A DNA stretch of 62,475 nt from Myxococcota bacterium. GTDB lineage: Bacteria > Myxococcota_A > Polyangia > Polyangiales > Sandaracinaceae. The position numbers and the translations under genes were made by a program. Positions 47,717-62,475 of this stretch are shown here, piece after piece. Each line of letters starts with the position of its first letter. Within the stretch, counting starts at the first letter, position 1. The notes below the pieces were generated by a model. That model made no database searches. It saw nothing but the letters and a program-made list of their open reading frames with translations, and was not told the origin of the DNA. Location: assembly GCA_036149055.1 (NCBI GenBank), contig JAYZQJ010000183.1, positions 1 to 62,475 on the forward strand, written 5' to 3'.

Positions 47717-50077
47717 ATGCGCTTCGTCTGCCTCTCCCTCCTGCTCTTCGCCGCCGGCTGCGACTGCGCGGGCGATCCCGACCCCGACCGCTGCGAGAGC
47801 GACGAGGGTTGCCCGGGCGGCGTCTGCGTCGACGGCGTCTGCGTGGACGTGGACATGGACGCCGGCGCCACCGACGGCGCGCCGACCGAGGACGCGCCGC
47901 CCGAGGCCTGCGACAGCGGGCTCGTCTGCGAGGGCGTGTGCTGCCCGGCCAACCACCGCTGCGCCTTCGACCGCTGCGTGATCGACCTCGGCCCGTGCGA
48001 CACCGACGACGACTGCGCCGGCGACAGCTACTGCGACGGCGAGGGGCGCTGCACCCCGTACGGCGTGCCCGAGGACGTGGTGAACGACCCGGAGTGCGAG
48101 CGCACGATCACGATCGGCGACTTCACCCCCGACGAGCAGTGCCGCTGGGAGAGCCCGCCCGCCGGCGATCCCTTCGAGACCTGGGGCAACGTCTACAGCG
48201 CGCCCCACGTCGCCGACTTCGACCTCGACGACGATCCCACCGTGCTCGCGCCGAGCATCGTCTTCGGCGGCTTCGGCGACTCGCGGGAGGGCGCCATCCT
48301 CCGCGTCCTCGACGGGCGCACCTGCACCGAGCAAGCGGCGCTGACCGACCCGGCGGACCGCCTGATCTACGCGAGCAACTTCGCGATCGGCGACCTCGAC
48401 GGCGCGCCCGACGGCCGCCCCGAGATCGTCGCCGCCTCGCTCATCTCCCGCGAGACGCCGGGCGGGCTGGTGGCGTTCGGCTACGACGCCGGCGCGGGGA
48501 CCTTCGTCCGCCGCTGGTACGGCCGCCGCTGCGATCTCCCCGGCGAGCCGCGACACACCCCGAACGACTGGGCGAACAACAACGGCCCGTCGATGCACGA
48601 CCTGGACGACGACGGCACCCCGGAGGTGCTCCTCGACCGCTTCGTCTACGACGCGAACGGCTGCCTCCTGAACCCGGGCGCCGCCTACGAGAACTACCTC
48701 CGCCTCGGCCTCTTCGCCGTGGTCTCCGACGTCGACCTCGACGGCCAGCCCGAGCTGGTCCGGCACGACGGCGTCTACGCCTGGTCGGGCAGCGACTGGG
48801 TGCGCGAGGCGAGCTGGGCGCCCTCGAGCCCGACGGACGCGGAGCGGGTCGGCCACGTCGCGGTCGCCGACCTGGGCGACTTCCCCGGCGTGGCCGGCGA
48901 CGCCCCGGGGCGCGCCGAGATCGTGGTCGCGTCCGCGCCGAGCTCCACCAGCCCGGCCACCGCCACCGGGAGCGTCCGGGTCATGACCGTGGCCGGCGAG
49001 ATCGTCTTCGGGCCCTACGACCTGCCGAACGAGCCGGGCGAGGTGGCCGGCCGTGGCGGGCCGCCGACCATCGGGGACTTCGACGGCGACGGGAGGCGCG
49101 AGCTCGCGGTCGCCGGCGGCTCCCGCTACACGGTGTTCGACCTCGACTGCGACGTGGACGCCGGCTCGGCCCCCGGCTGCGCGCGGCTCGACGGGCTCCC
49201 CCGCGGCGTGCTCTGGAGCCGGCGCAGCCAGGACCGCAGCTCGAACGTCACCGGCTCGAGCGTGTTCGACTTCGACGCCGACGGCGTGGCCGAGGTCGTC
49301 TACGGCGACGAGTGCTTCGTGCGCATCTACCGCGGGACCGACGGCGAGGTGCTCTTCTCGAGCAGCGCGTCGAGCGGCACCGGCTACGAGCTGCCGGTGA
49401 TCGCGGACGTCGACGGCGACTTCAACAGCGAGATCGTGTTCGCGATGACGCGCGGCGTGAGCTGCCCGGCGACCGACCCGATCTTCACCCGCGGCGAGTC
49501 CACCTTCGAGAGCGGCACCGGCATCCGGGTGCTCCGCGACGTGATGGACCGGTGGGCCGCGTCGCGCCCGATCTGGAACCAGCACGCCTACTCGGTCACC
49601 AACGTCGAGGACGACGGATCCATCCCGCGCACGAGCGCGGTCCGCGTCAACCACACCGACGCGACGCTCAACAACTTCCGCATGAACGCCCAGGGCACGC
49701 TCGAGCGGCGCGGGGCGGCCGACCTCACCGTCTCGCTCGCCCGCGCCTCGGAGCTCTGCGACCGGCTGACCGGCGAGGTGACCCTGGCCGCCAACGTGTG
49801 CAACCGCGGCACCAACCCCGTGCCCGACGGCGCGCGCGTCGTCTTCTTCGCCGGCGACCCCGACGGCGGCGCGGACATCGCGTGCGAGACCACCCTACCC
49901 CGCCTGCTCGATCCCGGCGTGTGCACGGAGGTCAGCTGCGCGTGGACGGTGCCCGACATGAGCATGGTCACCCGCAGCGTGACGGTGGTCGTCGACTCCG
50001 ACGGAGAGGTCTTCGAGTGCCGCGACGGCAACAACCGCGGCGTGGTCCCGGACATCTACTGCGGGGGCCCGTTCTGA
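47717..50077 (+). CDS. Cys-rich FG-GAP-repeat lipoprotein with C-terminal CARDB-like domain (paralog of 21822-24056)
   Basis: AAGC lipobox; GGPPTIGDFDGDG, QDRSSNVTGSSVFDFDADG, WNQHAYSVTN, ECRDGNN. Confidence 0.85.
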   Translation: MRFVCLSLLLFAAGCDCAGDPDPDRCESDEGCPGGVCVDGVCVDVDMDAGATDGAPTEDAPPEACDSGLVCEGVCCPANHRCAFDRCVIDLGPCDTDDDCAGDSYCDGEGRCTPYGVPEDVVNDPECERTITIGDFTPDEQCRWESPPAGDPFETWGNVYSAPHVADFDLDDDPTVLAPSIVFGGFGDSREGAILRVLDGRTCTEQAALTDPADRLIYASNFAIGDLDGAPDGRPEIVAASLISRETPGGLVAFGYDAGAGTFVRRWYGRRCDLPGEPRHTPNDWANNNGPSMHDLDDDGTPEVLLDRFVYDANGCLLNPGAAYENYLRLGLFAVVSDVDLDGQPELVRHDGVYAWSGSDWVREASWAPSSPTDAERVGHVAVADLGDFPGVAGDAPGRAEIVVASAPSSTSPATATGSVRVMTVAGEIVFGPYDLPNEPGEVAGRGGPPTIGDFDGDGRRELAVAGGSRYTVFDLDCDVDAGSAPGCARLDGLPRGVLWSRRSQDRSSNVTGSSVFDFDADGVAEVVYGDECFVRIYRGTDGEVLFSSSASSGTGYELPVIADVDGDFNSEIVFAMTRGVSCPATDPIFTRGESTFESGTGIRVLRDVMDRWAASRPIWNQHAYSVTNVEDDGSIPRTSAVRVNHTDATLNNFRMNAQGTLERRGAADLTVSLARASELCDRLTGEVTLAANVCNRGTNPVPDGARVVFFAGDPDGGADIACETTLPRLLDPGVCTEVSCAWTVPDMSMVTRSVTVVVDSDGEVFECRDGNNRGVVPDIYCGGPF

Positions 50078-50119
50078 GGCGGTTTGCACCGCGGGGCAAT
50101 CTGTCCTGTAGTGGGCGCC

Positions 50120-52621
<2,502 letters not shown>

Positions 52622-53759: not shown

Positions 53760-54665
53760 CTACTCCAGCCCGATCTTCGTCGAGTGGAGCGTCAGGAAGT
53801 CGCGCGCGGCGGCGATGACCTCGTCGTCGGCGAGGACCCGGCGGTGGCCGAGCCCCTCGGTGAGCAGCAGCCGGGAGTCGGCCCAGGCCTCGTGCAGCCG
53901 CTCGCCGCAGGCCGCCGGCACCTCCCGGTCCGCCCGGTCGTGCACGATGAGGGCGGGGAGATCGAGCCGGGCGGCGAGGGTCGGCCCGTAGACCTCGTCG
54001 AAGGTGCGGCCGACCTTGCTCTCGATCGTCGCCTGGGCGCGCGCCAGCGTCGGCGCGCCGAGCCCGAGCATCCGGCCCATCTCCGCCACCCAGGGCTCGG
54101 GCGAGATCGGCGCGCCGATCAGCACCGCGCCCCACGCGTCGAGCCCGTCCGACAGCGCCAGCGTCGCCGCCGCCGCGCCGAGCGAGTGCGCGAGCAGCCC
54201 GACCGGGCGCTCCTCGCCCTGCGCCACCCGCACGAGGGCGCGCGTCATCTGGCCGAGGTTGGTGGAGCGGCCGGTCGACTCTCCGTGGCCGACGTGGTCG
54301 AAGGTCACGACCCGGAAGCCGGCGGCGACCAGGGGCTCCACGAACGGCGCGAGCTGGGTCGCGCGTCCGTTCCAGCCGTGGGTGAGCACCACCGTCGGCC
54401 CACGCCCCCAGCTCCAGGCGGCGAGGGTCTCGCCCTCGAACGGGACCCGGAAGCGCCGCGCGAGGCCGAAGGCCGCGCTCGCGCCGGGCCGCATCCGGCG
54501 GGTCTGGAAGAAGAGGGTCGCGGCGATGCGCGCGGCCGCCTCCGGGGAGACCGCCTCCACCGCCCCGATCGAGCGGCGCATCCAGGCGGGCGCGCGTCGA
54601 GTCTCGGCGGCCTTGCCGGAACCAGAACGAACGGTCGTGCTTTTATCGTGAGACAACTGGGTCAT
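53760..54665 (-). CDS. Alpha/beta fold hydrolase
   Basis: HGWNG, GHGES, AHSLG nucleophile, HDRAD, GLGH. Confidence 0.9.
   Translation of the reverse strand: MTQLSHDKSTTVRSGSGKAAETRRAPAWMRRSIGAVEAVSPEAAARIAATLFFQTRRMRPGASAAFGLARRFRVPFEGETLAAWSWGRGPTVVLTHGWNGRATQLAPFVEPLVAAGFRVVTFDHVGHGESTGRSTNLGQMTRALVRVAQGEERPVGLLAHSLGAAAATLALSDGLDAWGAVLIGAPISPEPWVAEMGRMLGLGAPTLARAQATIESKVGRTFDEVYGPTLAARLDLPALIVHDRADREVPAACGERLHEAWADSRLLLTEGLGHRRVLADDEVIAAARDFLTLHSTKIGLE
54627..54638. promoter_or_regulatory. Second copy of the putative TetR operator, inside the hydrolase coding sequence
   Basis: ACGAACGGTCGT, the reverse complement of the 55319-55330 site. Confidence 0.65.
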
Positions 54666-54690
54666 GACTTCCTCCTCCCGCGAAACGGGC

Positions 54691-55281
54691 TCAGACCCGC
54701 GCGCTTCCGACCAGGCGCTCGAAGCCGGCGCGCAGCCGGGCCTCGGCGTCGTCCTGCTCGAGCAGGCGCGAGAACCAGTGATAGGAGAGCGCGAGCCCCC
54801 AGAGCTCGAACGCCCACTGCCGCGTGTCGAGCTCGGGCGCGAAGTGGCCCTCCTCGACCGCGATGCGCGCGGCGGTCCGCAGGGCGTCCATCCAGTCCCT
54901 CTGCACGGAGACCAGGTGGTCGCGGACCGGGCCGGGCTGATCGTCGAGCTCGGCCGCGGCGGCCACGAAGGGGCAGCCACCCGGCAGGTAGGACGCCTTC
55001 TCCCAGGTGATCCAGCGGTCGAGGATCGCGCGGACCCGGGGCTCGCCCCGCGGCGCTCGGAGCGCCGGCGTCATCACCTCGGACACGAAGCGCGCCCTCG
55101 CCTCCTCGAGCACCTGGATCTGCAGGTCCTCCTTGGAGCCGAAGTGCGCGTAGAGCCCGCTCTTGCTCATGCCGAGGGAGGTGGCCAGCCCGCCGATGGT
55201 CAGCCCATCGAGCCCCAGCACGCTCGCCTGCGACAGCGCGTCCGCCAGGATGGCGGCCCGGGTCTCTTCACCTTTGCTCAT
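54691..55281 (-). CDS. TetR/AcrR family transcriptional regulator
   Basis: LTIGGLATSLGMSKSGLYAHFGSKEDL HTH; GGCPF. Confidence 0.95.
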   Translation of the reverse strand: MSKGEETRAAILADALSQASVLGLDGLTIGGLATSLGMSKSGLYAHFGSKEDLQIQVLEEARARFVSEVMTPALRAPRGEPRVRAILDRWITWEKASYLPGGCPFVAAAAELDDQPGPVRDHLVSVQRDWMDALRTAARIAVEEGHFAPELDTRQWAFELWGLALSYHWFSRLLEQDDAEARLRAGFERLVGSARV

Positions 55282-55338: not shown

Positions 55339-55457
55339 GCGACGGCGATCGCCGTCCCCGCCACGGACGGACGCGGCCCCGAGCGACTGACGCTTCCTCT
55401 CGAGAGCTGGCGACGACGGCGCCGCACGTCGCCGTCGGACCCGCCCCCGCCCAGGGC

Positions 55458-58400
55458 TCACCGCGGCTTGGCGACGCGGCGGAGCTCGGCGTCGAAGGCG
55501 GCGAAGAGCGCGGGCGGCTGCCGCCGGGCCTGACGCTCGAGGCAGCGCTCGAGGTGGTCGGCCTGCCCGGCCAACGCGTAGCGCACCACCAGCGCGCCGT
55601 CGGGGTCGTCGTCGCCGTCCGGCTCGTGGAGCGCGAGGGAGCGCTCGGCGTGTCGGCCGGCTCCGTCGAGGTCCCCGGTGGCGAAGAGCGCGAGGGCGCG
55701 GCTCCAGTGCGCGTTGTGACAGAAGGGGGCGGCGTCGACGGCGTGGCGGCTGCAGCGGAGGGCCTCGTCGAGCTCTCGCATCGCCCGCGCGAGGAGCGCG
55801 CCGAGGCGCTCGGGCCCGATGTGCTGGTAGGGGTGGATCGCGGCGAGCCGGCGCGCGCAGGCGATGGCCTGCTCCAGCTCCCCCTTGCGCACCCACGACT
55901 CCTCCATGGCCGCGAGCGCGTCCTCGTCGGTGTCGTCGATCGCGACCGCCCGCTCCGCGGCCTCGTTCGCGTCGGCGTAGCGATCGAGCGCCGCGTAGGC
56001 GTAGCTCAGCTGGGCCCAGTCGTTGGCCGACTCGCTCATCGCCGCGCGGACGGCGTCGAGGTCGCGGTCCTCGCCGAGCTGCGCCCGCTCCGCCGCCGCG
56101 CGGATGCGCCACGTCATGCGCTTGCCCGCCCCGGCGCGCTCCGCCTCGAGCGCGGCCGCGTCCCCCGCCAGGCGGTGGTCGATCGAGCGGGTGGCCCAGT
56201 AGACGTCCCACGCCAGGTGGGCGGGCACCCCGTCCTCGCAGAGCGCGCGCAGGCGCGGCATCGCCTCCCGGACCGCGCCGGCGAGGCGGTGCGCGGCGAG
56301 CCAGCGCTGCTCCGCCCGGTTCTTGAGCCGCGGGGACGTCACCCGCTCGGGCACGCGGCGCGCGAGCGCGAGGGCCCGGTCGTAGCGCATGTCGTCGATG
56401 TGCCAGGTGACGAGGTCGAGCAGCCCCTGCTCGGGATCGGCCCAGGCCCGCAGCGCGTCGCCGAGCGCGCGCTCCGCCTCGTCCTCGCGCCCGAGCGCGG
56501 CCGACAGCGCCGCCCGGGTCTCGAGCACGTAGGGGTCCTGCGCGTCCTCCACCGCGTCGAGGTGATCGAGCCCCTCGGCCGGATCTCGCTCCGCGAGCGC
56601 CCACGCCAGCCGGATGCGCGACCAGCCGTGGCGCGGCGCGAGCTCCACCACCCGCCGCAAGGTCGCCTCGCCCTCCGCCCGCGTGAGCACGTCGCGCGAG
56701 AGCAGGCTGCCCAGCCGCGACATCGCGCCGACGTCCTGCGGCGACGCGGCGAGCACCCGGCGGAACAGGGAGACCGCGTGTCCGCGCTGGTTCTCGTCGT
56801 CGAGCAGACCGCCGATGGCGCGGACGAGCTCGGGATCGGTCGCGTGCGCCTCGGCCAGCTCGCGCAGCCGCGCGGCCGCCACCTCCCGGGACTCCAGCCG
56901 GCACCACAGGTCCCAGAGCGCGTCGGCCAGCGGGCCCGGCTCGCCGCCCTGCGCGAGCGCCCGGCTCAACATCTCCGCCGCCTCGGGGCCCCGCTCGAGC
57001 GCCTCGAGCGCCTCCGCGTGGAGAGTGAAGGCCCGGGTCGGCCCGCGGCCGCCTTCGGTGATCCGCGCCAGGGCGCGCTCGGCCTCCTCGACCCGCTCCA
57101 GCGACCACAGCGCCTGCGCGAGCCCGAGCGAGGCGAACGGGCTGCTCGGGTCTCGCTCCAGCGCCTCCGCGAAGGCGGCGCGCGCGCCCTCCCAGTCGCC
57201 GCAGGCCGCGGCCAGATCCCCCGCGACCTCGTGATCGAAGGGGTTGTCCGGGTGCTCGGAGAGCGCCACCCGCGAGAAGTGGGCGGCGCGCCGGCGCAGC
57301 GTCTCGTCGGCGCCGCGGACGCGCTCGAAGACCCGCGTCGGCGCGAGCAGGCTCTCGGGACCGCCCGTCTTCTTGCCCCGCTCGATCAGCTCCCGCACGT
57401 AGACCGCGGCCAGGTTCTCGGCGGCGCGGACGTCGTGCGGCGCGAGCGCCAGCGCCTCGAGCAGCAGCCCCTCGGCGCGCTCGAGGTCGCCGCCGAGCCA
57501 CATGCACTCGCCCATGCTCTGCTTGTTGTGGCTGTCGCCCGGGTCGCGACGCGACGCCTCGAGGTACTCGGCGTAGGCCTCGTCGCGCAGCCCGCGGTCG
57601 AAGAGGGAGTGGGCGTGCAGCTGGTGCGGCCACTCGTCTTCTCCGAACGCGGTGCGCACGTGGTGCAGGTCGCGCAGGAAGGCGTCGCGGTCGTCGGCCC
57701 GGCCGGTCATCTGGTGGAGGCGGCGGCGCGCGGAGACCCGGCGGTGCCACGCGAGCTTGAACTCCGGCGCGAGCGCGATCGCCTCGTCGCAGCGACGCAG
57801 GAGCTCGAAGAGCGAGGCCTCCTCCTTCGCGCCCCCGCCGCCGGGGCGGAGCCGATCGGCGTCGTCGAGGATCCGGAGGTGCGGCGCGTCGACGAGCCCC
57901 GCCTGGTCGCACCGCGCCTCGAGCGCAGCGAGCTCGGGTCCGGCGCGGCCGAGCACGATGATCGCGCCGTTGCCGAAGAGCTGCCCGGCGCGCGCCGTGA
58001 ACTCGAAGGTCTTCATCAGCGGGCGGTGCGTCGCCGGGTCCTGCGCGATGAAGGTGCCGAGCGCCTCGTCGTAGCCGACCAGCACCGCGACGTGGGAGGT
58101 CGTCGAGTACTCCTCCTGCACGATCACCGGCAGGCCGAGATCGATCGCCGCCATCAAGCGCGCGCGCGTGCCCTCCACCCGGCGCGCGACGATGTCGTGC
58201 GCGCGCAGGAACGCGGCGATCTCGAACATCGGCGTGCCGTGCTGACGCTTCACCACGTCGGCGATCTCGTCCTGGGTGAGCTCGATCGCGAGGTAGCGGA
58301 AGCAGAGCTCGAGCACGGCCGGCCCGCAGTAGTTCCACTTCTGCGAGGTGGTCGGGAACGCGGCGAGGCGCTGCCGTCGGCCGCCCTCGAGGTGACGCTC

Positions 58401-59183
58401 CAGGTGGCTCATGCGCTCGCGCGCGTAGCGCCCCGCGCCGCTGTCGGGGCTCATCCGCCAGGCCTCGCCGAGCGCCTCGAGCGCGTCGGCGTGTCGCCCG
58501 GTCCCGGCCAGCGCGAGGGCGTGGCTGATGCGGTCGTCCTGCGCGTGGTCGCTGCCCTCGCCCTCCTCGAGCACCTTCGCCCAGGCCTCCGCCTCGGCCT
58601 CCGGATCCTGTCGGGCCGCGTGACAGCTGGCGATGAGCCGGAGCGCGCGGAGCCGCGTGGGGCCCGGCCCGACCCTCCGGGCCTCGGCGATGGCGGCGTC
58701 GAAGTCGCCGAGCACGTACAGCCCGTCGGCGAGCGCGTGCCGCGCCGCGTCCTCCGCCTCGCCGCCCGCCTCGATGGCCTTCGCGAAGCAGGCGTGGGCC
58801 CGCTCGCGCTCGTCGAAGCCCATCATCGCGCGGCCCTCCGAGAGGAGCACGCGCGGGTGCGCGCCGAGCGCCTCCCGCGCCTCGGCGACCGCGCGCTCGG
58901 TGAGCGCGAAGCACCGCTTCGCCGCGTAGCCGTCGATCCGGAGCGCGTGGGCGCGCGGCAGCTCCGCCTCGAAGGCGGGCGCCTCGATGAGCGCCTCCAC
59001 CGCGAGCACGGTCTCGTCCACCGGCACCCGGGGCTCGCGCAGGTCGAGCTGGGCCCGCCGCAGCGCCCGGCGCCACCCGAGCGCCGTCTCGATGCCCTCG
59101 TCCGGTCCCTCCTCGAGCGCCGCGCGCGCCTCGCGGATCCGCTCCTCGGCCAGCAGCGCCTCGATCGCGTCCAGATCGGTCAC
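55458..59183 (-). CDS. Large TPR protein with intact C39-like (papain-fold) peptidase domain
   Basis: SQKWNYCGPAVL (Cys codon 58326-58328), SHVAVLVGYD (His 58092-58094), IAQDP (Asp 58038-58040); TPR-like repeats on both sides; GTG start overlaps the upstream TGA. Confidence 0.85.
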   Translation of the reverse strand: MTDLDAIEALLAEERIREARAALEEGPDEGIETALGWRRALRRAQLDLREPRVPVDETVLAVEALIEAPAFEAELPRAHALRIDGYAAKRCFALTERAVAEAREALGAHPRVLLSEGRAMMGFDERERAHACFAKAIEAGGEAEDAARHALADGLYVLGDFDAAIAEARRVGPGPTRLRALRLIASCHAARQDPEAEAEAWAKVLEEGEGSDHAQDDRISHALALAGTGRHADALEALGEAWRMSPDSGAGRYARERMSHLERHLEGGRRQRLAAFPTTSQKWNYCGPAVLELCFRYLAIELTQDEIADVVKRQHGTPMFEIAAFLRAHDIVARRVEGTRARLMAAIDLGLPVIVQEEYSTTSHVAVLVGYDEALGTFIAQDPATHRPLMKTFEFTARAGQLFGNGAIIVLGRAGPELAALEARCDQAGLVDAPHLRILDDADRLRPGGGGAKEEASLFELLRRCDEAIALAPEFKLAWHRRVSARRRLHQMTGRADDRDAFLRDLHHVRTAFGEDEWPHQLHAHSLFDRGLRDEAYAEYLEASRRDPGDSHNKQSMGECMWLGGDLERAEGLLLEALALAPHDVRAAENLAAVYVRELIERGKKTGGPESLLAPTRVFERVRGADETLRRRAAHFSRVALSEHPDNPFDHEVAGDLAAACGDWEGARAAFAEALERDPSSPFASLGLAQALWSLERVEEAERALARITEGGRGPTRAFTLHAEALEALERGPEAAEMLSRALAQGGEPGPLADALWDLWCRLESREVAAARLRELAEAHATDPELVRAIGGLLDDENQRGHAVSLFRRVLAASPQDVGAMSRLGSLLSRDVLTRAEGEATLRRVVELAPRHGWSRIRLAWALAERDPAEGLDHLDAVEDAQDPYVLETRAALSAALGREDEAERALGDALRAWADPEQGLLDLVTWHIDDMRYDRALALARRVPERVTSPRLKNRAEQRWLAAHRLAGAVREAMPRLRALCEDGVPAHLAWDVYWATRSIDHRLAGDAAALEAERAGAGKRMTWRIRAAAERAQLGEDRDLDAVRAAMSESANDWAQLSYAYAALDRYADANEAAERAVAIDDTDEDALAAMEESWVRKGELEQAIACARRLAAIHPYQHIGPERLGALLARAMRELDEALRCSRHAVDAAPFCHNAHWSRALALFATGDLDGAGRHAERSLALHEPDGDDDPDGALVVRYALAGQADHLERCLERQARRQPPALFAAFDAELRRVAKPR

Positions 59184-62100
59184 CAGGCGAGCCCTCCCCT
59201 CTCCACCGTGATCATCGCGCCCGGCGCGAAGCCCGTCAGCGCCCGTTCGTCGTCCCGCGCGTCGGGGTGCGCGGCCGCCCGGCCGATGAGCGTGAGCTCG
59301 GCTCGGGCGTCGGCGTGCCGCTCCGCCCGGGCGCGCACCCGTTCGGCCCACGCCGGCTCTCCGAGCGCGAGCCGGGCGCCGGCGAGCCGCGCCCGCATCA
59401 CCCAGCCGTCGTACGCGCCGCCGGCGGAGCGACGCGTCACCCGCAGGACCTCCTCCTCGGCGCGCCGGGCCGCCCGCTCCCAGTCGCCGGCGGCGAGCGC
59501 CACCCTCACGTCGAGGAAGACGTCGGGCGCGTCGATCGACGCGAGCCGCGCCGCCGCCTCGGTCACCTCGTCGAGCCTCAGGTGCTGGCGCGCCGCCTCC
59601 TCCGCGAGCCGCCGGCCCGCGTCTCCGTCGGCGTCGGCGAGGGCGCCGTCGAGGAGCTCCAGGCTCCGCCGCGACATCCCCACGGTGCCCAGGAAGCCGG
59701 CCGCGCGCAGCACGTGGTCGGCGTCCAGCTCGCTGAGACGCGCCGTCACCCGCGCCGCGTCGTCCGCCTGGCCGAGCGCGAGGTGGACCTGCTCGAGCGC
59801 CTTCCACACCAGCGCGGGCGCGGCGGCCGCGTCGGCCTCCTCGAGCAGCGCCAGGCAGGCCTCCGGGTCGGCCTCGACCTCGTACAGCGCCTTGACCACC
59901 CGCGGGTGCGGGTAGCGCCCCGCCCGCTCGATGGTCTCGTCCAGTAAAGCCGCGACCCGCGCGCCGCCACGCTCGGCCGGCACCCCCAGCAGGGTCTGCG
60001 CCGCCCGCCAGGGCCCGTTCGCGTCGTGCGGCATCAGCTCCCGCGCCGCGAGCGCGACGGAGATCCCGAGCGCGTCGTGGCGGCGGCGCACGAGGTCGAC
60101 CGCGACGTTCATCAAGGAGAGCGGCGAGCGCCCGAGCGCCCGCACCATCTCCTCCGCGCGAGCCTCCATCTCCTCGGGCGTGAAGAGGGTCCCGAGCACG
60201 CGGGCCACGCCGTCGACCAGCGCGGGGTCGGCGCCGCATCGGGACACGCCCGCGAGCGCGGTGTCGAAGGCCGCGCCCCCGTCGCCGCTCGCGAAGCACA
60301 CGAAGGTGACGTCGTCCCAGTTGAGCGGGTCGGCTGGATCGACGCGGAGCAGGGTCTCGGCCAGCGGCCGCGCGTCGCCCCAGCGTCCGTCGTGGAAGAG
60401 CCGCTTGAGGATCCGGGCGCGGGCCCCGGTGTCCCGCGGGTTCTCGTCGGCGATCCGCTCGAGGCGGGCGAACGCCTCGTCGTGGCGGTCCATCGCCTCG
60501 AGCACCGTCGCCCGGGCGCCCAGCACGTCGGGGTCGCCGGGCGCCAGGGCCTCGGCGAGCTCGCTCAGGCGCCGGGCCCGGTCGAGCCGCCCCCGCCGCT
60601 CGAGCAGGGTCGCCCAGCGGGCCATCGCCGGGGCGTGCCCGTGCTGGATCGAGAGCGCGCGCCGGAGGAGCGCCTCGGCCCGCGTGGTCTGGCCGACCTG
60701 CAGCAGGCAACGCGCCTCGCCCCACGGGTTGCGGTGATCCCAGGGATCGATCGCCGCCGCGTCCGCCCACGCGATGGCGGCCTCGTACGGGCGCCCCCAG
60801 CACTCCATCGCCTGGGCGTGGATCTGGTGCGCCCACTCGGCGCGCGGGAAGCGCTCCCGCGTCACCGCCACCCAGCGCTCGAGCCGACCGCCGGCGAGCC
60901 GCCCCGCGCGGAGCTGCTCGAGCATCGCCTCCCCCTGGCGCCGGTGGGGCGTGGGCAGGGTCGGCGCGACCTCGATCGCGCGCTCGGCCATCGCGTCGAC
61001 CCGCGCCCGGCTCGGCACCTGCCCGGACTCGTCGACGTCGCACCGATCGATCGCGTCGAAGCGCGGATCGTGCGCGAGCCCCTCGTCGGCGAGCGCGGCG
61101 AGCGCCGCCTCGGCCTCGTCGCCGAGCCCGAGGGCCACCAGGGCGCCGCCCCCGAAGAGCCGCCCCCGGTCGGCCTGCTCCTCGAAGGTCTGGAGGTAGG
61201 CGCCGCCGCGCGCCGGCTCGTGCAGCAGCAGCAAGCCGGCCACCGGCTCGACGCCGAGCACCAGGGTGAAGGCGGTGTGGGTCGGCCGCTCCTCCTGCAG
61301 CACCACGAGCCCGCCCGCGCGGGTGGCGGCCTCGACCGCCGCCGGCTCGCCGACCAGGCGGATCGATCGGACGCCGGCCTCGCCGAGCCGATGGCGGAGC
61401 ATGCCGATGCTGTCGAGGGGCTCGGCCGACGCGTCCACGCCGAAGCGGGCCAGGCACTTGGCCAGGGCGCCGGCCCCCGCGTCTCCGGCCCGGGGGGAGA
61501 GGGGGACCGGGGCGCCGAAGACCCAGCGCGGCCCGCCGTCCCGCCGCTCCGGGTCGCGGTCCACGCGATCGAGCACGTCCGCCGCGCGCAGGTGCGCGAG
61601 CAGGTCGGCGCGGCGGCCGCGCGTCTCCTCACGAATGGCCCGCAGGGCCTCGAGCGCCGCCTCGACGTCGCCCGCGGCCCAGCGGCAGAGGGCGCCGCTG
61701 GCGGCGAGGAGCGAGGCGTCCGAGGCCTCGGGCGCGTCCGCGACCGCGCGCCCGAAGCAGTCCGCCGCCGCCGCGAAGTCGCGCTCGGCCCGGGTGAGGT
61801 CGGCGAGCAGCCGGTGCGCGCGCTCTCTCCCGGGCGGCGGCCGCGACGCGAGCTCCGCCTCCAGGCACTCGCGCGCCGCCGCGACGTCTCCCTCGCGCAG
61901 CGCCAGCCTCGCCGCGTGCTCGGCCCGGTCCTCGGCCTCGAGCTCGTCGGTCTCGAGCTGCTCGGCCGCGAGCGTCAGCTCCGGGTCGCCCGGATGGGCG
62001 GCTCGCGCCTCCTCGAGCGTGGCCTCGGCCGCGCCGCGGGCGCCGGCCTTCGCCAGCGCGCGGATCGCGCGGGCCAGGTACGCGGGCGCGTCCGGCGCCC

Positions 62101-62284
62101 TCGCCTCCCGCAGGCGCTCCGCCGCCTCGACCGCGTCCACCAGCGGCGCGTGCCCCCGCGTCGCGAGCTGAGCCCGGAGCCGGACCACCCGCAGATCCTC
62201 GTCCGCCCCCGCGTCGCCCAGCGCCTCGGCCAGCTGCCGATACCGCCGCTCCGCGAACGCCGCCTCGAGCTCCTCCAGATCCAT
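59180..62284 (-). CDS. Large TPR protein with degenerate C39-like domain (paralog of the downstream gene)
   Basis: Aligns with the downstream protein (VVLQEE, TFEEQADRGRLFGGGALVALG, EWAHQIHA, DPWDHRN) but catalytic positions are substituted. GGAGG RBS before ATG 62284. Confidence 0.8.
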   Translation of the reverse strand: MDLEELEAAFAERRYRQLAEALGDAGADEDLRVVRLRAQLATRGHAPLVDAVEAAERLREARAPDAPAYLARAIRALAKAGARGAAEATLEEARAAHPGDPELTLAAEQLETDELEAEDRAEHAARLALREGDVAAARECLEAELASRPPPGRERAHRLLADLTRAERDFAAAADCFGRAVADAPEASDASLLAASGALCRWAAGDVEAALEALRAIREETRGRRADLLAHLRAADVLDRVDRDPERRDGGPRWVFGAPVPLSPRAGDAGAGALAKCLARFGVDASAEPLDSIGMLRHRLGEAGVRSIRLVGEPAAVEAATRAGGLVVLQEERPTHTAFTLVLGVEPVAGLLLLHEPARGGAYLQTFEEQADRGRLFGGGALVALGLGDEAEAALAALADEGLAHDPRFDAIDRCDVDESGQVPSRARVDAMAERAIEVAPTLPTPHRRQGEAMLEQLRAGRLAGGRLERWVAVTRERFPRAEWAHQIHAQAMECWGRPYEAAIAWADAAAIDPWDHRNPWGEARCLLQVGQTTRAEALLRRALSIQHGHAPAMARWATLLERRGRLDRARRLSELAEALAPGDPDVLGARATVLEAMDRHDEAFARLERIADENPRDTGARARILKRLFHDGRWGDARPLAETLLRVDPADPLNWDDVTFVCFASGDGGAAFDTALAGVSRCGADPALVDGVARVLGTLFTPEEMEARAEEMVRALGRSPLSLMNVAVDLVRRRHDALGISVALAARELMPHDANGPWRAAQTLLGVPAERGGARVAALLDETIERAGRYPHPRVVKALYEVEADPEACLALLEEADAAAAPALVWKALEQVHLALGQADDAARVTARLSELDADHVLRAAGFLGTVGMSRRSLELLDGALADADGDAGRRLAEEAARQHLRLDEVTEAAARLASIDAPDVFLDVRVALAAGDWERAARRAEEEVLRVTRRSAGGAYDGWVMRARLAGARLALGEPAWAERVRARAERHADARAELTLIGRAAAHPDARDDERALTGFAPGAMITVERGGLAW

Positions 62285-62475
62285 GTCCCCCTCCGGCCCC
62301 GAGCATGCCCGCACTCCCGCCGAACGACAACCCATCTGGCACCGTCGAAGGGCCGCCACCCGCGGCCCGGCGACCCCGGGCCCGGGCCCCTGCCCGGGCC
62401 CGTGCCCGCGAGCCGAAGCACCACACCCCGGAGGCATCAACGGCGCCCGGGTATAGGCGGTCACGAACCCGGCCC

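Follow-up and report, generated by a model that had tools for sequence, protein, structure and literature searches.

A conserved two-gene module of Myxococcota pairs a putative C39-type TPR peptidase with a pseudo-peptidase paralog

Enzyme/pseudoenzyme paralog pairs are a recurring route to regulated or substrate-selective proteases, and the stretch of DNA analysed here raises the question of whether such a pair exists among papain-like cysteine peptidases. This stretch, hereafter the window, is the entire 62,475-base contig JAYZQJ010000183.1 of a Myxococcota bacterium (assembly GCA_036149055.1; genome of 9.9 Mb, 75% GC). Two large adjacent genes on its minus strand, B (upstream) and A (downstream), encode tetratricopeptide repeat (TPR) proteins that an earlier note, made from the sequence alone, had proposed to be an active C39-type protease and its dead paralog, acting together as a heteromer. 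The bacterial active/inactive pairs that we found in print are metallopeptidases (M16B), and the only dead form discussed for the C39/papain-like clan is the C39-like domain (CLD) inside the transporters of type 1 secretion systems. From sequence comparison and predicted structures, we lean, with modest confidence, towards the reading that A and B form a heterodimer derived from a homodimeric singleton, in which A would provide the sole active site and B would be a non-catalytic scaffold or recruiting subunit.

Both reading frames (Table 1) have a GC content at third codon positions (GC3) of ~ 0.96 and thus behave as real genes of 75% GC DNA, and many homologs were found for A and for B alike. 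The GTGA overlap of two genes of ~ 1000–1250 amino acids (aa) described in the earlier note was confirmed, all the motifs that it quoted lie where it placed them, and Pfam TPR matches together with the predicted C39 folds of both central domains bear out its TPR / papain-like / TPR layout for each protein. In A, TPR families flank on both sides a domain whose residues 276–384 match Peptidase_C39_2 (PF13529; 38.1 bits for a cut-off of 24) and barely reach PF03412 (22.6 bits for a cut-off of 22), which places it in the C39_2 branch, apart from the C39 domains of peptidase-containing ATP-binding cassette (ABC) transporters (PCATs). A profile of 27 active domains, compared with solved structures, matches the ComA PEP domain (3k8u, E 3.9e-4), whose Cys, His and Asp align to Cys286, His364 and Asp382 of A. 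The AlphaFold 2 (AF2) model of the A domain (predicted local distance difference test, pLDDT, of 88.9) retrieved with Foldseek 3erv, LahT150 (6mpz), ComA (5xe9/3k8u), PCAT1 and the dead C39-like domain of HlyB, the E values for the LahT150, ComA and PCAT1 chains being 1e-5 to 6e-4. Gln281, Cys286, His364 and Asp382, the C39 residues previously assigned to A, do not vary across 59 aligned sequences of A-type proteins and of the lower-scoring singleton proteins described below, and PF13529 is listed for 91 full-length-type relatives of A. Its predicted fold and its residues make A a C39/C39_2-type (clan CA) peptidase, with putative proteolytic activity. Pfam detected no ABC_tran or ABC membrane family in A or B, and hydropathy profiles revealed neither a hydrophobic N-terminus, in line with the lack of signal peptides noticed previously, nor a transmembrane-like segment in either protein (highest Kyte-Doolittle 19-residue mean: 1.11 for A; 1.65 for B, reached within beta strands of the domain), suggesting that both are soluble and cytoplasmic.

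B is a paralog of A (BLASTP 72.8 bits, E 9e-17, 28% identity over 703 columns) in which Pfam recognizes TPR families alone, without a C39 hit. The AF2 model of its central domain (pLDDT 92.1) retrieved papain/C39-like chains including PCAT1, 6mpz, 3k8u, the HlyB CLD 3zua and 7sgr, so that the fold check invited by the earlier note gave a C39/papain-like answer for both proteins. In the multiple alignment, B carries Ala in place of Cys, Ala in place of His and Glu in place of Asp; having lost Cys and His while retaining the fold, it is considered a pseudo-peptidase. The loss of Cys and His put forward in the earlier note holds across the family, as both are absent at the catalytic columns in 27/27 B rows, whereas the replacement of Asp by Glu is limited to the window copy and its nearest relatives, most B orthologs keeping Asp. 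The four residues Gln, Cys, His and Asp are kept in every paired A and every singleton of our motif tables. This pattern was extended by an exhaustive profile search against 1.84 billion representatives (50%-identity clusters): it returned 245 proteins at E ≤ 1e-30, and 55 of the matches listed were sorted by two hidden Markov models (HMMs) into 51 B-type proteins, 3 singleton-type controls and one too weak to assign (P0215). The His column contains no His in any of the 51 B-type representatives (another residue in 47, a gap in 4), and a single one (P0142) has Cys at the Cys column, while the 3 controls show the complete Gln/Cys/His/Asp set. Homologs of the upstream gene hence never keep the His and essentially never the Cys. 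An initial word-indexed search, which returned 10 proteins, had understated the B family and was corrected by this profile search and by the locus scans. A cysteine of B lying just past the pseudo-domain (Cys415, window 61040-61042) is nearly invariant in B, at a site where the window copy of A reads 'DDAD'; its motif ('IDxCD') also occurs in many active relatives, which ruled it out as a substitute nucleophile.

The association of the two genes is widely conserved. B and A are neighbours in all 27 distinct B-then-A loci recovered in Myxococcota (the window being counted once), no locus with B alone was seen, and B stays adjacent while identities between A proteins fall to ~ 36–45%. Among 61 genomes related to that of the window, two harbour full-length orthologs of A (G014 at 63% and G017 at 61% identity), each with a B ortholog directly upstream (54% and 50%, respectively) and an ATGGTGA junction; overall, B orthologs were found at 50–64% identity. 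Three others (G003, G019 and G043) encode an A-like protein of ~ 1205 aa (30–39% identity) without adjoining B, the G043 contig being too short to judge, and the gene upstream of the G003 singleton, considered as a B remnant, was discarded as an unrelated small membrane protein. A partial match in G023 supports no claim. Scanning 185,579 species genomes with the B alignment yielded 10 loci, labelled as Polyangia, Sandaracinaceae, Kofleriaceae, Polyangiaceae, Myxococcota or 'delta proteobacterium', with A directly downstream of B in 10/10. Scanning metagenome contigs with the A alignment yielded 35 loci, which HMMs of the two types sorted cleanly into 17 A-clade loci with B directly upstream (including L038, at 99% identity to the window), 2 A-clade loci whose upstream DNA is absent and 16 loci of the lower-scoring 'singleton' type. 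B thus lies directly upstream in 17/17 A-clade loci having upstream DNA, and in none of the 9/16 singleton-type loci with at least 1.8 kb of upstream DNA. The pair occurs in 3/32 genomes of the family sample, and the 100% complete genome of a member of the same genus (G001) gave only a TPR-level match and no pair, making the latter accessory. A sample of 401 genomes of the phylum gave a B-type match in G000 and G128 only, with two candidates scored per genome, a count that provides no prevalence figure.

B is under purifying selection and is not a decaying copy. Ratios of nonsynonymous to synonymous substitution rates (dN/dS), which the Nei-Gojobori (NG86) method distorts upwards under the extreme GC3 of both genes, range from 0.39 to 0.47 in B and from 0.31 to 0.46 in A for six locus pairs, a seventh being saturated. 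The two proteins contrast in where this constraint is located: conservation in A peaks in the catalytic domain (windows 281–400, 0.76–0.80), whereas the maximum of B lies further downstream (windows 441–520, 0.65–0.67) and its former Cys-helix and active-site region scores 0.40, being variable or deleted in several lineages. A quick, unrooted LG+G4 tree (71 proteins, 384 columns) recovered B as a single clade (Shimodaira-Hasegawa-like approximate likelihood ratio test support of 100) with all active proteins on the other side, and the branching order within this clade mirrors that of the A clades. This tree does not resolve how the A clades and three singleton groups branch relative to one another, and a topology opposing A and B together to all singletons is not worse (log-likelihood 2.65 higher, approximately unbiased test p 0.568). 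These patterns are compatible with a singleton-like ancestor that duplicated once, the two copies being inherited together from then on. One metagenome-assembled genome (L033) has B matches in two frames on either side of L033:8489-8546, a frameshift due to a disrupted B gene or to an indel in the assembly; B is intact in its close relative L030.

Structure prediction supports in silico the heteromer proposed in the earlier note. With A 236–640 and B 212–620 as input, each with its family alignment, the complex score reached 0.73, 0.72 and 0.73, for 0.00 in the best of 3 controls, with 100% contact agreement between runs and a partner pLDDT of at least 83. A mark of 0.73 is reached by 116/157 solved complexes and 2/215 mismatched pairs, a calibration that is approximate here as our own alignments were used. 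The predicted interface is pseudo-twofold, with the A helix 500–514 meeting the B helix homologous to A 534–545, plus the reciprocal contact, and coincides with the conservation maximum of B. It is also asymmetric: A537 is Phe or Tyr in 26/26 sequences and faces B473, which is Ala or Gly in 26/27, while at the homologous positions B503 is Gly or Ala in 17/27 (Leu in 7 more) and A507 is mostly His, Ala, Met or Tyr; two invariant tryptophans of B (Trp471 and Trp506) correspond to Asp and Tyr in A. The contacting residues A507 and B503 covary in size, since a large A507 (His, Tyr, Phe, Gln or Leu) is accompanied by Gly or Ala at B503 in 16/16 pairs, Ala at A507 by Leu or Phe in 6/7 (the seventh being L033, where B is frameshifted) and Met at A507 by Leu in 2 pairs. 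The conservation of the predicted interface, the asymmetry between A and B and this covariation fit a real contact tuned to the heteromer. Each finding that the earlier note had named as speaking against its proposal (a central domain of another fold, upstream homologs that usually keep Cys/His or decay, a pair not maintained as neighbours or devoid of interface) thus came out the other way.

Table 1. Features of the A–B module, with positions in the window
Feature	Position	Strand	Details and evidence
Gene B	59180..62284	(-)	ATG start, 1034 aa, TPR / pseudo-C39 / TPR
Gene A	55458..59183	(-)	GTG start, 1241 aa, TPR / Peptidase_C39_2 / TPR
GTGA stop/start overlap of B and A	59180..59183	(-)	sequence
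Shine-Dalgarno-like GGAGAGGGGAGGG in the 3' end of B	59192..59204	(-)	purine-rich, 8-20 nt 5' of the GTG of A
GGAGGGGGA ribosome-binding-like tract	62286..62294	(-)	ends 1 nt ahead of the ATG of B
C39-like peptidase domain of A, residues 276-396	57996..58358	(-)	Pfam, profile match, predicted fold
A Gln281 (oxyanion)	58341-58343	(-)	motif
A Cys286	58326-58328	(-)	motif
A His364	58092-58094	(-)	motif
A Asp382	58038-58040	(-)	motif
Pseudo-C39 domain of B, ~ residues 252-400	61085..61531	(-)	alignments, AF2 model, Foldseek
B Ala269 at the Cys position	61478-61480	(-)	alignment
Predicted interface helices of A, residues 500-545, around the EWPHQLHA motif	57549..57686	(-)	complex prediction, column profiles, covariation
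Predicted interface helices of B, residues 466-532	60689..60889	(-)	complex prediction, most conserved stretch of B

In the scenario that we favour, the ancestor was a homodimeric singleton, of the kind that persists by itself in other genomes, and would have duplicated; copy A would have kept catalysis, and copy B the dimer interface and the TPR arrays, becoming a non-catalytic scaffold or a substrate- or ligand-recruiting subunit. The two proteins would bind through the pseudo-twofold helical interface located just past their protease domains, and would together make up a soluble cysteine protease of the cytoplasm that has only one active site. By analogy with solved C39 enzymes, A might act on a target bound by the TPR solenoids, cleaving it behind small residues such as Gly-Gly. 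The earlier note had left the role of the dead subunit between sensor, adaptor and inhibitor. In B, conservation is lowest in the half that once carried the active site, and some lineages have deleted it, which argues against the dead site as a sensor, and the distance of the predicted interface from the active site lends no support to B as an active-site inhibitor. A more ambitious form of this scenario, which we advance tentatively and hold to be possible but doubtful, would define a class of obligate heterodimers in which a TPR-caged C39 protease is joined to a dead subunit through a shared interface, re-tuned by knob-into-hole changes to fit the A-B pair exclusively, and the TPRs of the dead subunit select the ligand or substrate and thereby license the one catalytic site.

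Several points weigh against this interpretation. Singletons with an intact active site exist without B, as seen in 9 metagenome loci and in 2 genomes whose upstream DNA is long enough, so that the protease fold does not intrinsically need a dead partner. The complex prediction covers the central third of A and of B, and its high score may reflect an ancestral homodimer interface shared by the two paralogs; the case for a contact specific to the heteromer consequently comes from the knob/hole asymmetry and from the covariation. The latter corresponds to only one or two independent evolutionary events, the Ala/Leu state being confined to one clade. Constraint on B is read from dN/dS values inflated as indicated above. 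Some C39-related folds are acyl- or transpeptidases, and A could likewise be one of these rather than a protease; its protease activity, its Gly-Gly specificity, its cytoplasmic location and any regulatory role of the pair are putative. Finally, the metatranscriptomic contigs presented below are compatible with the expression of A and B, but they show no transcript ends and may include carried-over DNA.

The dependence of the proposed contact on prediction gives some room to the absence of any stable complex, A being a protease and B a TPR scaffold with another job, kept adjacent only through co-regulation. TPR proteins are often independent scaffolds, and the memory of a homodimer interface could by itself account for the prediction; we nonetheless regard this as unlikely, because B adjoins A in every locus despite the divergence of A and the lack of conserved flanks, because the strongest conservation of B sits on the predicted interface, and because of the A507/B503 size compensation and the bulky/small asymmetry of A537/B473. 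It is less likely still that B is an antitoxin- or immunity-like inhibitor, made first and holding A inactive until its removal would let A cut essential targets. The order of the genes, with a non-catalytic partner upstream and a stop/start overlap, is reminiscent of type II toxin-antitoxin operons, C39-fold antibacterial toxins with immunity proteins exist, toxin chains (8ssk, 9l5u) are among the fold hits, and the pair is patchily distributed, including its absence from the same-genus genome. However, active singletons living without B indicate that the protease is not inherently lethal, B retains a whole architecture of ~ 1000 aa unlike antitoxins, and the interface predicted at A 500–545 is distant from the catalytic residues 281–382.

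A role in defence was also considered, in the form of an anti-phage or stress-signalling switch: a trigger detected by B through its TPR arrays would allow A to cleave an effector or a host target. TPR arrays are common sensors of ligands and peptides, defence systems include TPR-gated proteases such as TPR-CHAT/Craspase, the accessory-like distribution among relatives would suit such a system, and B has a Pfam match to TPR-S (sensor), weak and below the cut-off (E 0.12). Yet PADLOC-DB 2.0.0 returned 0 families for A and B at E up to 0.1, and no defence gene, integrase or CRISPR gene occurs in the flanks annotated, i.e. those of the window and of five loci holding the pair or a singleton relative (L025, L028, L029, L030 and L035). 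The neighbours are ordinary metabolic and regulatory genes outside any mobile or defence island, and no effector gene is conserved beside the pair. These observations count against the inhibitor as well, and make the switch the least probable of the explanations weighed here. The heterodimer with a single active site remains our preferred reading.

Compared with described C39 systems, A shares the fold (as predicted) and the Gln/Cys/His/Asp arrangement of ComA PEP (3k8u), LahT150 (6mpz) and PCAT1 (4ry2), but, unlike peptidase-containing ABC transporters, it is not fused to an ABC transporter, none occurs in the operon, and its domain sits between two long TPR arrays in a soluble protein of 1241 aa. 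C39 enzymes are described as cutting double-glycine leaders (PMC6363468), and StbD-CT, a C39-fold toxin, as cleaving a Gly-Gly motif in GyrB/ParE (bioRxiv 10.64898/2026.05.07.723447). The CLD of HlyB is presented as a C39 fold without catalytic Cys that is retained, needed and binds unfolded substrate (PMC6363468). B likewise has a dead C39 fold; however, the HlyB CLD is a domain of a transporter, whereas B is a separate TPR protein of 1034 aa paired with an active paralog, and the variability or deletion of its active-site half makes substrate docking in the old cleft doubtful, unlike in HlyB.

Other proteins combining TPRs and C39_2 are common and, like A, all uncharacterised: the PA2778 family, Atlas clusters of 1650–1970 aa and archaeal forms of ~ 320 aa. 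A falls outside the PA2778 family (NF033920, NCBIfam), since it scores 64.3 bits for a cut-off of 150, with a match restricted to the peptidase part (model positions 5–130 of 255). A survey of papain-like proteins (Journal of Biological Chemistry, 2023) treats C39_2 as single-domain peptidases near transporters (PMC10318531), and PA2778 is only named, in another study, as a putative C39-domain protein and possible type 6 secretion system toxin candidate (bioRxiv 10.1101/733030). In the literature searched, no dead paralog partner is reported for PA2778-type or other TPR + C39_2 families. In agreement with the earlier note, which knew of none, our full-text search (covering few subscription journals and no supplements) found no description of an active/dead C39-TPR pair.

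The closest parallel in gene organisation comes from the M16B heterodimers, whose active and homologous non-peptidase subunits, reported to be encoded by adjacent genes, form the working enzyme, with SPH2681/SPH2682, TTHA1264/TTHA1265, AlbF/AlbE and the alpha/beta subunits of the mitochondrial processing peptidase (MPP) as examples (PMC12731061). A and B share with them the neighbouring active and inactive paralogs, although the complex of A and B is a predicted one, and the evolutionary logic of a homodimer, a duplication and the silencing of one site. The clan and chemistry are unrelated (zinc clam-shell versus papain-like cysteine protease), and the M16B subunits are half the size and devoid of TPR arrays. 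Outside these enzymes, caspase-8 and cFLIP form a heterodimer of active and dead paralogs that regulates activity, and TPR-CHAT (Craspase), a TPR-flanked cysteine protease as A would be, has a different fold; CHAT and caspases belong to clan CD. The analogy with TPR-CHAT is functional only, with no CRISPR or defence context around A and B.

The genes surrounding the module vary from locus to locus: a TetR regulator, a hydrolase and MoaA in the window, and an ABC transporter, an acetyl-CoA synthetase, a kinase and a sigma-54 activator elsewhere. A conserved third gene was ruled out, as nothing is common to the annotated flanks except a TetR and alpha/beta-hydrolase pair found in the window (53760-55281, minus strand) and in G014 (L028:465-2094). 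This pair lies downstream of the module in the former and upstream in the latter, and does not adjoin it in more distant loci. The conserved unit is the two genes B and A alone. A promoter-like site (55338-55311) lies ahead of the TetR gene downstream of A. Seawater metagenomes from ~ 10 studies contain near-identical DNA, and a metatranscriptome run (X17) contains a 5353-nt contig covering 54000-55411 and 55454-59281, which spans the TetR and hydrolase genes and crosses the B/A junction by 98 nt, as well as further contigs covering B from 59390 to 61344. The 42 bases that the 5353-nt contig lacks (window 55412-55453) fall within the intergenic DNA that separates A from the TetR gene, beside the promoter-like site. 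Farther away on the plus strand of the window (47717-52621), two adjacent large genes encode proteins of 786 aa (FG-GAP, CARDB) and 845 aa (no Pfam family).

At the junction itself, a start codon of A overlapping the TGA of B is available in 22/27 loci, with an alternative ATG start 2–20 nt downstream in 6 of these 22, while a gap of 7–10 nt separates the genes in 4 and the arrangement is unclear in 1; among orthologous pairs, the junction reads ATGGTGA, ATGA or GTGA. The GGAGGGG tract ahead of A is also found in G014 and G017. In the clade of the window, the last residues of B (ERGG) coincide with this ribosome-binding tract, and their GG, considered and set aside as a conserved Gly-Gly autoprocessing site, is confined to a Sandaracinaceae-like clade. 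The C-terminal tail of B (residues 1013–1031; window 59192-59246) has an Ala-Pro-Gly that is invariant in a 10-sequence alignment, followed by x-x-T-[ILV]-[DE]. C-terminal peptides are frequent ligands of TPR arrays, and this tail may dock somewhere within the complex. On the other side of B, the 99% identical contig L038 encodes a 536-aa protein with a GNAT acetyltransferase domain that ends with TGA at 1759-1761, where the window reads TGT (62423-62425, minus strand), leaving the frame open from the contig edge into B. A GNAT-B read-through fusion is possible in the window assembly, or else a sequence variant or error; B keeps its own ribosome-binding tract and ATG despite this open frame. 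In a metagenome protein of 731 aa (P0090, on a 3.8-kb contig), the N-terminus is A-like (TPR + C39_2) and is followed by half of a gamma-glutamyltranspeptidase, the C-terminal one. This protein was set aside as a probable chimera and was not used; glutathione-acting phytochelatin synthase is among the fold hits of the A domain, which makes this join odd.

Altogether, A and B constitute an old, self-contained two-gene module, represented by ~ 50 B-type 50%-identity clusters among the matches listed, across several families of Myxococcota. The coexistence of singleton and split forms amounts to a natural experiment, with a predicted interface that is specific and mutable, and the system is suited to asking how obligate heterodimers arise from homodimers and what a C39 subunit brings to them once it is dead. 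If the obligate heterodimer proved true, MPP alpha/beta or caspase-8/cFLIP would have a counterpart in bacteria and within the papain clan. More broadly, the module draws attention to an uncharacterised family of putative cytoplasmic proteases in predatory and social bacteria.

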